Virus record (IMG/VR): IMGVR_UViG_2695420624_000002
Location: 1-18,279 of that record
Strand: one strand, 5' to 3'
DNA from: a virus
Lineage: Duplodnaviria > Heunggongvirae > Uroviricota > Caudoviricetes
Length of the DNA: 18,279 nucleotides
Part shown: positions 16,949 to 17,745 of the stretch, piece after piece
Layout: each line of letters starts with the position of its first letter
Numbering within the stretch: the stretch's first letter is position 1
Program-made: the position numbers and the translations under genes
The notes under the pieces: model-generated
What the model saw: the letters and a program-made list of their open reading frames with translations, nothing else
Databases searched by the model: none
Told to the model about the DNA's origin: nothing

Positions 16949-17027
16949 ATCACCCTCACAATGTGAACTTTGAGTACACACTATAACAGAACTGACAGTA
17001 CATTCAAGAGCGAATATCATTGAACTT
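16949..17027. promoter_or_regulatory. Divergent promoter/operator region of the immunity switch
   Basis: 79-bp spacer between divergent cro-like and cI-like genes containing imperfect inverted repeats built on TGAAC/GTTCA and TGTG..CACA half-sites (caatgTGAACtttgagtaCACA; atTGAACttatgGTTCAt). Confidence 0.4.
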
Positions 17028-17447
17028 ATGGTTCATGAAGATAAAGCGCGTAAAGAGTTCGCCAGTAGGCTTGCGCTAGCCTGTGAAAACGCTGGTTATG
17101 AACAACATGGAAGGCAGGCAGAAATTGCCCGTCGAATGAAATTAACACCAAAAGCGGTTAGCAAATGGTTTAATGGCGAAACAATTCCTCGCCGGGAGAA
17201 ATTAAGGGAATTAGCAACACTAATAGGAACAACACCAACCTATCTTTTGGGAGAGGATACAGAAGAAAGTGGACAGGTACGTTTCTATCAGGAGTTAAAT
17301 CCAAGACAAAAAATCATCATTGACCTTCTGGACGAGCTCCCTGACAGTGAGACAGATGAACTTTTAAAAACTCTTGAAGAGAAAAAACAGAAGTACAATG
17401 CAATTTACGAAGAGTTAGCACGAAAGAAAAAACAAAAAGCCTCTTAA
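17028..17447 (+). CDS. CI-like prophage repressor (RacR-type, HTH only, no S24 peptidase domain), 139 aa
   Basis: HTH segment QAEIARRMKLTPKAVSKWFNGE; acidic/lysine-rich C-terminal tail without Ser-Lys autocleavage motifs; divergent from the cro-like gene. Confidence 0.65.
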   Translation: MVHEDKARKEFASRLALACENAGYEQHGRQAEIARRMKLTPKAVSKWFNGETIPRREKLRELATLIGTTPTYLLGEDTEESGQVRFYQELNPRQKIIIDLLDELPDSETDELLKTLEEKKQKYNAIYEELARKKKQKAS

Positions 17448-17520
17448 AACCAGCATAAATCCGGTAGCGCCTTCCTCCGGGTTTGTGCTTCACTTTATCC
17501 CATCTCATTTTTTTACACAC

Positions 17521-17570
17521 AAAATGTACTAAAAGTACTTTACAATAATGAACGCAAAGTACATTATATA
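17521..17570. promoter_or_regulatory. Operator-like cluster of AGTAC-based inverted repeats with promoter-like hexamers upstream of the small rightward genes
   Basis: aaaATGTACTaaaAGTACTTTACAataatgaacgcaaAGTACATTATATA: ATGTACT and AGTACAT are reverse complements; TTTACA and TATATA-like hexamers are embedded. Confidence 0.3.
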
Positions 17571-17745
17571 CCTACCACCCACCCCGCCCCACAGAATGCA
17601 GGGCAATACTTCGAGTTACCAGGCAGTGGTCAGGGGTTAAGTAGCCAGCCCGAGGCGTAAGAACATGACGGCAGGGTTCAACTTTAATAACTATGCAGCA
17701 GGTTTTTGTTCCGCTACCCCGGCGTTAAGGGGAAATGAGGTCAAC

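Follow-up and report, generated by a model that had tools for sequence, protein, structure and literature searches.

In the 18,279-nt stretch of Caudoviricetes DNA deposited as IMG/VR record IMGVR_UViG_2695420624_000002 (referred to here as the window, meaning the whole stretch at its full length), a gene for a 139-residue repressor lies between two groups of related operators. We conclude that this region is very probably the switch of a lambdoid Escherichia coli prophage built on the plan of phage HK022, that the operator cluster downstream of the repressor gene corresponds to the left operators (OL) and leftward promoter (PL) of such a switch, and that the repressor is a hybrid protein of a non-cleavable type. 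The chromosome of E. coli strain 2015C-4136CT1 (NZ_CP027550) contains the window at 100% identity, and at least 80% of the length of the segment from 16600 to 18279 is carried by 237 of 5,426 complete E. coli genomes. Tritos, a plaque-forming phage that corresponds to prophage 3 of the adherent-invasive E. coli (AIEC) strain LF82, also carries the segment, at 99.2% identity. A reading made earlier from the letters alone (the original prediction) had proposed an immunity region here, and this is supported by the evidence presented below.

The original prediction had further proposed a separate, AGTAC-based operator cluster downstream of the repressor gene. The three elements it named, ATGTACT (17524–17530), AGTACTTT (17534–17541) and AGTACAT (17558–17564), are all present where it had placed them; the cluster begins 76–77 nt after the repressor stop codon (17445–17447), close to the 75 bp proposed, and lies ahead of three small genes, as had been noted, these being ydfA, ydfB and ydfC. 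As a motif, AGTAC shows no enrichment (26 matches in the window, with 18.3 ± 4.8 expected), and it was dropped in favor of a longer one. A repeat finder had aligned units of 16–20 nt in the cro/repressor gap with units in the downstream cluster (families D1, D3 and D8), and this alignment pointed to a 15-bp dyad, TGWAC-N5-GTWCA. With at most one mismatch allowed, the dyad matches the window 10 times against 1.6 matches expected, a number that none of 200 shuffled sequences reached, and half of these matches (starting at 16964, 16988, 17021, 17525 and 17549) fall within 16964–17035 and 17525–17563.

Three of the five dyads occupy the gap between cro and the repressor gene and correspond to the right operators (OR) of a lambdoid switch. 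OR1 (TGAACTTTGAGTACA, 16964–16978) matches exactly and lies just downstream of the −10 element of a PR-like promoter, over its predicted start and at −64 from the repressor ATG; OR2 (AGAACTGACAGTACA, 16988–17002), with one mismatch, lies 24 bp from OR1 between the −35 and −10 elements of the same promoter; and OR3 (TGAACTTATGGTTCA, 17021–17035), again an exact match, lies 33 bp from OR2 and overlaps the repressor ATG at 17028. The remaining two make up the downstream cluster: OL2 (TGTACTAAAAGTACT, 17525–17539; one mismatch) abuts the −35 element of a PL-like promoter, and OL1 (TGAACGCAAAGTACA, 17549–17563; exact) lies 24 bp from OL2, between the −35 and −10 elements. The elements recognized by the original prediction are thus half-sites of OL2 and OL1, the left half of OL1 (TGAAC) having been overlooked. 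The description of the cluster as separate does not hold, as it carries two further dyads of the kind present between cro and the repressor gene, and its core matches the annotated HK022 oL/pL region base for base. It is therefore an ordinary lambdoid OL/PL and no new regulatory element.

The relationship to HK022 became evident when the repressor was compared with phage records using tblastn, which matched the N-terminal part of HK022 CI. The HK022 immunity record (GenBank X16093) carries annotations for three oR sites, two oL sites, pR and pL. Read in the same orientation as the window, its OR1 is TGAACTTATGGTTCA, its OR2 (oR 3033–3047, the counterpart of OR2 here) is GGAACTGATAGTACA, and its OR3 (oR 3000–3014), which lies over the cI ATG and is identical to the OR3 of the window, is again TGAACTTATGGTTCA; its OL2 (oL 2225–2239) is TGTACTATTGGTACT and its OL1 is TGAACTTTAAGTACA. 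At the sites other than OR3, the differences between the window and HK022 fall mainly in the central 5 bp. The right operators lie at −64, −40 and −7 from the ATG in both, with the same 24-, 33- and 24-bp spacings.

We extended the comparison to further relatives, namely a metagenomic E. coli-like allele with a repressor 89% identical to that of the window (L011 and L012), two Salmonella loci with short repressors (L008 and L009; 62–65%), and two loci, from Raoultella and an enterobacterial assembly, that encode full-length CI proteins with an S24 peptidase domain (L013 and L014). The same geometry is present in eight loci (the window, HK022, Tritos, L011, L008, L009, L013 and L014) whose repressors range from 47 to 100% in identity, and the OL pair is 24 bp apart in every locus that extends far enough to include it (seven loci). 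Across 29 distinct sites, G2, A4, C5, G11, T12 and C14 are invariant, and the central five bases and the flanks vary. Invariant half-sites around a free center are the pattern expected of an operator for a dimeric helix-turn-helix (HTH) protein, to judge from the aligned sites. Seven loci with flanks that cannot be aligned share the core of the downstream cluster, AAAATGTACTnnnnGTACTTTACAnnnnTGAACnnnnnGTACAT, in essentially invariant form.

In several of these relatives other genes separate the repressor gene from OL: a HigB toxin/HTH antitoxin pair in the Salmonella loci (L008 3053–3720 and L009 3088–3755) and a gene for a 480-residue AAA-ATPase in the Raoultella locus (L013 3308–4750). The presence of such insertions confirms that the OL pair belongs to the leftward promoter and not to the 3′ end of the repressor gene. 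The gap between repressor and OL is the slot that rexAB occupies in lambda, and it appears to be a hotspot for accessory or defense genes.

Promoter scanning placed candidate promoters where the operators would control them. The PR-like promoter for cro (16980–17007, minus strand) consists of a −35 element TTGAAT (17007–17002), a 16-nt spacer and a −10 element TATAGT (16985–16980) preceded by TG, and it aligns with the annotated HK022 pR (TTGAAT/TATAGT versus TTGACT/CATAAT in HK022). The PL-like promoter (17539–17567, plus strand; −35 TTTACA, 17-nt spacer, −10 CATTAT) has a predicted start at ~17574 and coincides with the annotated HK022 pL (−35 TTTACA, −10 CATCAT); its TTTACA is invariant in the seven loci. 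Judged by position and gene content, this predicted promoter is the counterpart of dicBp in the Qin prophage and would drive ydfA-ydfB-ydfC-dicF-dicB-kil-exo-xis-int. The PRM-like promoter for the repressor (16992–17020, plus strand; −35 CTGACA, 17-nt spacer, −10 TATCAT) is the best promoter match in the region (10/12), and its −10 block, AATATnAT, is conserved among the relatives. Because it ends 7 nt 5′ of the repressor ATG at 17028, which has no Shine-Dalgarno sequence before it, transcription may begin at or next to the ATG and give a leaderless repressor mRNA, as at lambda PRM, which we consider plausible. Directly after the repressor stop codon is a hairpin followed by a U-rich stretch (17452–17489, plus strand; minimum free energy −19.2 kcal/mol, z = −5.1, with none of 200 shuffles as stable), which a simple terminator scan had overlooked and which probably terminates the repressor transcript before OL/PL.

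Since the OL region contains an inverted repeat (17532–17565), one might instead suppose that it acts in RNA, as a hairpin or as a terminator of minus-strand transcripts, and not as a protein-binding site. A terminator scan does report a 10-pair stem with a T-run at 17562–17535 on the minus strand, and the repeat was detected in its own right (inverted repeat I10). However, the stem contains just three G-C pairs, no minus-strand gene ends there, and the flanking genes are all on the plus strand; moreover, the conservation of half-sites with a free spacer, in a fixed 24-bp register with the −35 and −10 elements, is the pattern of operators. We regard this explanation as hardly credible.

The one feature that sets this switch apart is its repressor (17028–17447, plus strand). 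The original prediction had described a short repressor consisting of an HTH domain without a C-terminal S24 peptidase domain, and three kinds of evidence agree with it. First, the only Pfam families above the curated cut-off are HTH_3 and, on the same stretch, HTH_31, with no match to Peptidase_S24 (PF00717). Second, full-length alignment with S24 relatives, the comparison that might have revealed a cleavable peptidase domain, found none: residues 1–75 are 73–75% identical to the N-terminal domains of S24 CI proteins of 235–240 residues, but the similarity ends at the linker, the alignment collapsing after YLLG(D/E). The S24 forms continue with an Ala-Gly cleavage site (SAGPG) and a beta-rich domain, both of which the short forms lack. 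Third, an AlphaFold2 model (mean pLDDT 81.8) is all helical, with a five-helix HTH domain (residues 2–74), a low-confidence linker (78–83) and helices at 82–88, 92–103 and 106–138. The N-terminal domain is also 72–76% identical to those of the Salmonella short forms and aligns with residues 3–99 of HK022 CI (47% identity, E = 6e-32); the predicted recognition-helix segment, TPKAVSKWFNGE, is invariant in the relatives, and HK022 differs from it by V/I and T/S alone.

In place of the S24 domain, the short forms carry a tail, LNPRQKIIIDLLDELPDSETDELLKTLEEKKQKYNAIYEEL, with the module L-x-P-x3-hLxLFxxLPxSE ... EEL. In BLASTP comparisons the protein aligns through this tail with the C-terminus of DicA (29% identity over residues 30–137, E = 5e-15) and of the Gifsy-2 repressor STM1012 (E = 3e-10; alignment A5). 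When the last 62 residues were used in an exhaustive HMMER search, 40 protein clusters were recovered in which, fragments aside, the match always forms the extreme C-terminus of proteins of 117–216 residues, and the N-terminal HTH domains of these 40 clusters are diverse. A tblastn search of phage records with the tail, which is insensitive for so short a segment, returned only four phages carrying the identical allele. Foldseek comparison of the model with the PDB matched the HTH part alone; SinR/SinI and the SPC32H Rep complex were considered as structural matches for the tail and set aside as weak (E above 1e-3). Taken together, sequence comparison and the structural model show the repressor to be a natural domain hybrid, in which an HK022/CI-type DNA-binding domain (residues 1–75) is joined by a flexible, disordered linker to a helical module of the DicA and Gifsy GfoR/GtgR type (residues ~85–139) that replaces the S24 domain. 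We found no literature describing such a hybrid repressor. The components are already known: the operator and promoter architecture from HK022, the operon and the tail from DicA of Qin, and non-cleavable repressors, as a class, from the Gifsy prophages. What we did not find described is a DNA-binding domain of HK022 specificity, on an unchanged operator lattice, that bears either an S24 domain or a DicA-type tail.

Could the 139-residue protein be instead the decayed remnant of a full-length S24 CI, in a dead prophage that retains the operators as relics and has no functioning switch? In this strain the prophage has suffered an IS110 insertion, a truncation of dicB and a frameshift in the integrase gene, and the closest relatives of the N-terminal domain are full-length S24 proteins. 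Yet the tail is a conserved C-terminal module shared by about 40 protein clusters, DicA and the Gifsy-2 repressor, and it is kept at 57–60% identity in the Salmonella relatives; furthermore, the identical protein is the expressed repressor of plaque-forming Tritos, and ~237 complete E. coli genomes carry the region. Decay of this kind is, in our estimation, very improbable.

The genes transcribed divergently from the repressor had been described by the original prediction as a pair of the YdaS/YdaT type, and this is borne out for the second gene and not for the first. The Cro-like gene (16694–16948, minus strand; 84 residues, annotated as HTH regulator WP_001072337.1) encodes a protein with 60% identity to HK022 Cro over 73 residues (E = 1e-33); it has no match to the YdaS family PF15943, its BLASTP alignment with K-12 YdaS (E = 0.075) spans 18 residues, and it has no detectable similarity to DicC. 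The second gene of the PR-like operon (16272–16697, minus strand; 141 residues) encodes a YdaT/CII-like protein that matches Pfam YdaT_toxin (PF06254, 6e-10) and phrog_163, 'CII-like transcriptional activator' (3.7e-45), and is 33% identical to K-12 YdaT (E = 2e-16). Public gene calls for several of these regulators begin too far upstream: Tritos Cro is given as 108 residues (L003 9001–9327), and the repressors P0015 and P0021 are given N-terminal extensions (L009 2501–2956 and L013 2501–3223). The true starts are likely the conserved ATG inside OR3 for the repressor and the ATG at 16948 of the window for cro.

These features suggest how the switch might operate. Dimers of the repressor would recognize the five 15-bp dyads, of form tG(A/T)AC-N5-GT(A/T)CA, as their homologs do. 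OR1 and OR2 cover PR, the rightward promoter serving cro and the ydaT-like gene, and dimers bound there would shut it; at OR3, over its own start codon, the repressor would exert negative autoregulation; and at OL2 and OL1, which bracket the −35 element and fill the spacer of PL, it would silence the operon from ydfA to int. Cro presumably binds the same sites, and in doing so would lock in the lytic state. A repressor of this type would be beyond the reach of RecA-stimulated autocleavage, so that derepression would have to come about through an antirepressor or through spontaneous, Cro-driven switching as for DicA/DicC. The prophage would also be expected to be homoimmune with HK022-type phages.

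Several observations weigh against this interpretation or restrict it. The operator and promoter assignments for this allele rest on homology and consensus. OR2 lies over the −35 element of the PRM-like promoter, unlike the activating geometry of lambda, and positive autoregulation is thus not implied. Accessory sites such as the OL3 of HK022 or its far-right operator after cro are absent, as a search of 16200–17530 with up to two mismatches recovered nothing beyond OR1–3 and OL2. Cooperative binding at adjacent operators and OL–OR looping are known for the S24-type HK022 CI (PMC8053113) and may or may not extend to the helical tail. No homolog of Rem, the antagonist of DicA, was found in the window, in the rest of the prophage or in any phage carrying this repressor allele, Tritos included. 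Finally, the prophage copy in this strain is probably defective, with its switch intact.

How, then, would such a repressor be inactivated? The original prediction had argued that RecA-stimulated autocleavage is not to be expected, with which the lack of an S24 domain and of an Ala-Gly site agrees, and that an antirepressor or another route would be needed. The latter is a reasonable inference, and one already established for the DicA/Gifsy class (PMC10448788, PMC3121763), though no candidate emerged from our searches. Gifsy repressors do not undergo cleavage upon induction but are removed by LexA-controlled antirepressors that are able to act in trans from other prophages (PMC3121763). DicA, which represses dicBp 22-fold and forms with DicC a bistable, CI/Cro-like pair, is antagonized by Rem (PMC10448788). 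Searches by tblastn with Rem and with the proteins of the Gifsy-2 dinI unit (STM1020.1n) returned nothing from the window, the whole prophage, Tritos, L011 or the Salmonella loci; this negative is limited to those sequences, leaving aside the remainder of the host's genome, and, given how diverse antirepressors are, it is not final. Nor did we find a SinI-like second copy of the repressor tail. LexA-box matches occur at the frequency expected by chance (7 matches versus 6.7), and no dinI-linked one was found.

A 92-residue open reading frame (ORF) beside hokD (10569–10844, minus strand), which is the place of rem in Qin, was considered as an antirepressor gene and rejected: its product has no similarity to Rem, and it is not linked to the repressor allele, being 99–100% identical in phages with other repressors and standing alongside rem in mEp460_ev081. 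The ORF belongs to phrog_1212, a family of unknown function, and is 75–100% identical in many lambdoid coliphages and 34–45% identical in phages of Salmonella, Klebsiella, Cronobacter and Hafnia. Where a phage has rem, that gene is located ~70 bp upstream of the ORF.

Support at the level of function is provided by Tritos, which has the same operators and a repressor 100% identical to that of the window. In lysogens its repressor is transcribed 24-fold above the prophage background, and the phage is released spontaneously at ~2.8e6 genomes/mL and forms plaques (PMC9928086). Among the LF82 prophages, ciprofloxacin induced only Gally and Cyrano, and trimethoprim cut the yield of Tritos 3.4-fold (PMC9928086). 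Knock-down of LF82 prophage repressors was detrimental in a CRISPR interference screen (bioRxiv 10.64898/2026.01.05.697630). The 'phages' of the ON4706xx series are predicted prophages and not induced isolates.

It could nevertheless be that the prophage is SOS-inducible after all, through a small LexA-controlled antirepressor (resembling GfoA/GftA of Gifsy or Rem of Qin) that is encoded elsewhere in the prophage or in another prophage of the host and docks on the DicA-type tail. In its favor, the tail module is common to DicA, the target of Rem (PMC10448788), and to the Gifsy repressors, the targets of LexA-controlled antirepressors capable of acting in trans (PMC3121763). Against it stand the failure to find homologs of Rem or STM1020.1n within the sequences just listed, the chance-level number of LexA boxes, and the behavior of Tritos, which was not reported to be induced by ciprofloxacin and whose yield trimethoprim lowered. 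We consider SOS induction by this route unlikely. With respect to derepression of the HK022-type switch proposed here, we infer either an antirepressor that is unrecognized or acts in trans, or spontaneous Cro-driven switching as in Qin.

Comparison with previously characterized systems places the switch at the intersection of several of them. It resembles the HK022 immunity region in its 15-bp dyads, in the identity of OR3, in operator positions and spacings, in the placement of pL and pR, and in the relatedness of Cro (60%) and of the repressor N-terminal domain (47%), with a nearly identical predicted recognition helix. It differs in that the S24 peptidase/oligomerization domain of HK022 CI is replaced by a 55-residue helical tail; HK022 has an OL3 at 53 bp from OL2 and, after cro, a far-right site (PMC8053113), neither of which is present here; the OR–OL distance is ~775 bp in HK022 as opposed to ~500 bp here; HK022 has cII after cro where a YdaT-like gene is found here; and PL drives a ydfABC-dicF-dicB operon of the Qin/Rac type, with no nun/put region. 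From lambda it shares the divergent PR/PRM arrangement with three operators, the OL sites over PL downstream of the repressor gene and on the same strand, the 24-bp spacing of OR1 and OR2, and a slot between repressor and OL that in relatives takes extra genes; unlike lambda it has two OL operators instead of three, an OR3 over the start codon, and no S24 domain and hence no RecA-mediated induction.

The resemblance to the dicC-dicA-dicBp region of Qin lies in the order of elements (a cro-like gene, a repressor, two operators around a promoter, and then ydfA-ydfB-ydfC-dicF-dicB) and in a short, non-cleavable repressor (135–139 residues) whose C-terminal tail is homologous. In Qin, experiments have shown that DicA represses dicBp and that the switch is bistable and CI/Cro-like (PMC10448788). 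However, the Qin dyads are TTAG-N7-CTAA, with the dicBp pair 35 bp apart, which makes for a DNA-binding specificity other than the one here; DicC is unrelated to the Cro of the window; and no rem gene was found here. The repressors of Gifsy-1, -2 and -3 (GfoR, GtgR and GfhR) are likewise HTH proteins of ~136–139 residues without an Ala-Gly site and with a C-terminal LxxLFxxLPxxE module, but we found no dinI-linked LexA box or antirepressor gene in the searches described above, and the N-terminal domain and operators here are those of the HK022 family.

These comparisons raise the prospect, which we put forward tentatively and would not quite favor, that the HK022 DNA-binding domain and its operator set circulate in enterobacterial prophages with two interchangeable C-terminal modules, the SOS-cleavable S24 domain and the short DicA/Gifsy helical tail. 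If so, homoimmune phages and cryptic prophages would answer to different induction signals, and a non-inducible resident, of which this prophage would be an example, would exclude or repress incoming SOS-inducible phages of the HK022 type without ever being co-induced with them. The tail would then be a portable 'induction-input' cassette, which would also have to stand in for the contacts that the S24 domain makes in cooperativity and looping, the 24/33/24-bp operator lattice being unchanged. The occurrence of an S24 domain and a DicA-type tail on one operator lattice offers a natural pair with which to test the part of the C-terminal domain in cooperativity, looping and induction. Cross-immunity is predicted between HK022-type phages and a class of prophage present in ~4% of complete E. 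coli genomes, including effector-carrying prophages of pathogens and Tritos of AIEC LF82. Such prophages would not be expected to respond to SOS-inducing antibiotics as lambda-type phages do, which is of relevance as the switch controls the toxic dicF, dicB and kil.

The cluster at OL is followed by what the original prediction had called an unusual C-rich run. The run is real, with 17 C among the 30 bases from 17571 to 17600, but it is not unique, as 13 of the window's 36,500 30-mers, located in about five places, have as high a C content. It opens (~17571–17593) a conserved 5′ leader of the PL operon, 173 nt in length (17573–17745, plus strand), that starts at the predicted PL +1 (~17574). 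Similarity to phages with other repressors begins at 17573, and the leader is 88–98% identical behind four unrelated immunity cassettes, of the HK022, phage Evi, 606R7 and RacR types; the RacR-type instances include the racR-ydaG gap of the K-12 Rac prophage (L007 1166–1319), and further copies are found in L016, L017 and L018. K-12 Qin shares just the last 36 nt and is without the 130-nt C-rich leader, and HK022 shares none of it. Because the leader is conserved behind four unrelated cassettes and starts at the predicted PL +1, alignment places it outside the immunity cassette, where it is predicted to mark the right-hand mosaic joint of the cassette.

One could go further and take the leader itself to be a regulatory RNA of the PL operon (for instance a site for Rho loading, a processivity element resembling put, or an anti-Shine-Dalgarno element that pairs with the ribosome-binding site of ydfA), and as such the truly unusual feature of the locus. 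Its start at the predicted +1 and its strong conservation behind unrelated cassettes fit this idea, as do a first ~20 nt that is C-rich and G-poor and a consensus fold in which the C-run pairs with G-runs, one of them being the GGGG in the ribosome-binding region of ydfA. Yet the fold is less stable than that of shuffled sequence (z = +1.86), the alignment has 0 compensatory pairs and a positive covariation term, no Rfam family matched, and there is no second copy in the window, including downstream of PR. In addition, a typical rut site would be longer than the C-rich stretch, the leader is dispensed with in K-12 Qin and HK022, and a recombination joint between lambdoid modules would also be highly conserved. 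A regulatory role for the leader seems improbable to us; it may be a recombination joint.

Downstream of the leader, the PL operon begins with ydfA (DUF1391; 17746–17901, plus strand), which matches PF07151 at 1.7e-28, followed by ydfB (17903–18031, plus strand) and ydfC (18061–18279, plus strand), as given in the RefSeq annotation of the identical record. Past the end of the window lie the DicF RNA (76.7 bits against an Rfam gathering score of 48), a truncated dicB, kil, an exonuclease gene, an excisionase-like gene and a frameshifted integrase gene, and the gene order is that of the K-12 Qin locus dicC-dicA-dicBp-ydfABC-dicF-dicB. The truncated dicB and the frameshifted integrase gene lie at L001 11143–11226 and 14334–15384, respectively. 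Directly 3′ of DicF, overlapping the truncated dicB, there is a sub-threshold Rfam match to the small RNA STnc100 (L001 11075–11260; 31.2 bits against a gathering score of 47, E = 3e-4).

On the other side of the switch, gene calls place a replication-initiator gene at 15118–16206 (minus strand). An IS110-family transposase gene (13101–14378, minus strand) lies in the early-right operon between a DUF977 gene and a gene for a 194-residue HTH-domain protein (12334–12915, minus strand). Beside the IS110 element, the latter gene converges with a GNAT acetyltransferase gene (11867–12310, plus strand). In the same place Tritos carries an ImmA/IrrE-type metallopeptidase with an HTH domain and a 204-residue ORF, both expressed in lysogens (PMC9928086), and the site is a variable accessory slot. 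The host prophage as a whole is lambdoid, extending from the type III secretion effector genes nleB2, nleC, nleH and nleF through tail, head, lysis and Q genes to an integrase gene adjoining tRNA-Ser. Its cargo outside the window (L005 12230–15386) comprises nleB2, a truncated nleC, a frameshifted nleH, nleF, sodC and a Lom-family gene, and a repressor that is not of the SOS type may bear on the expression or mobility of these virulence genes.

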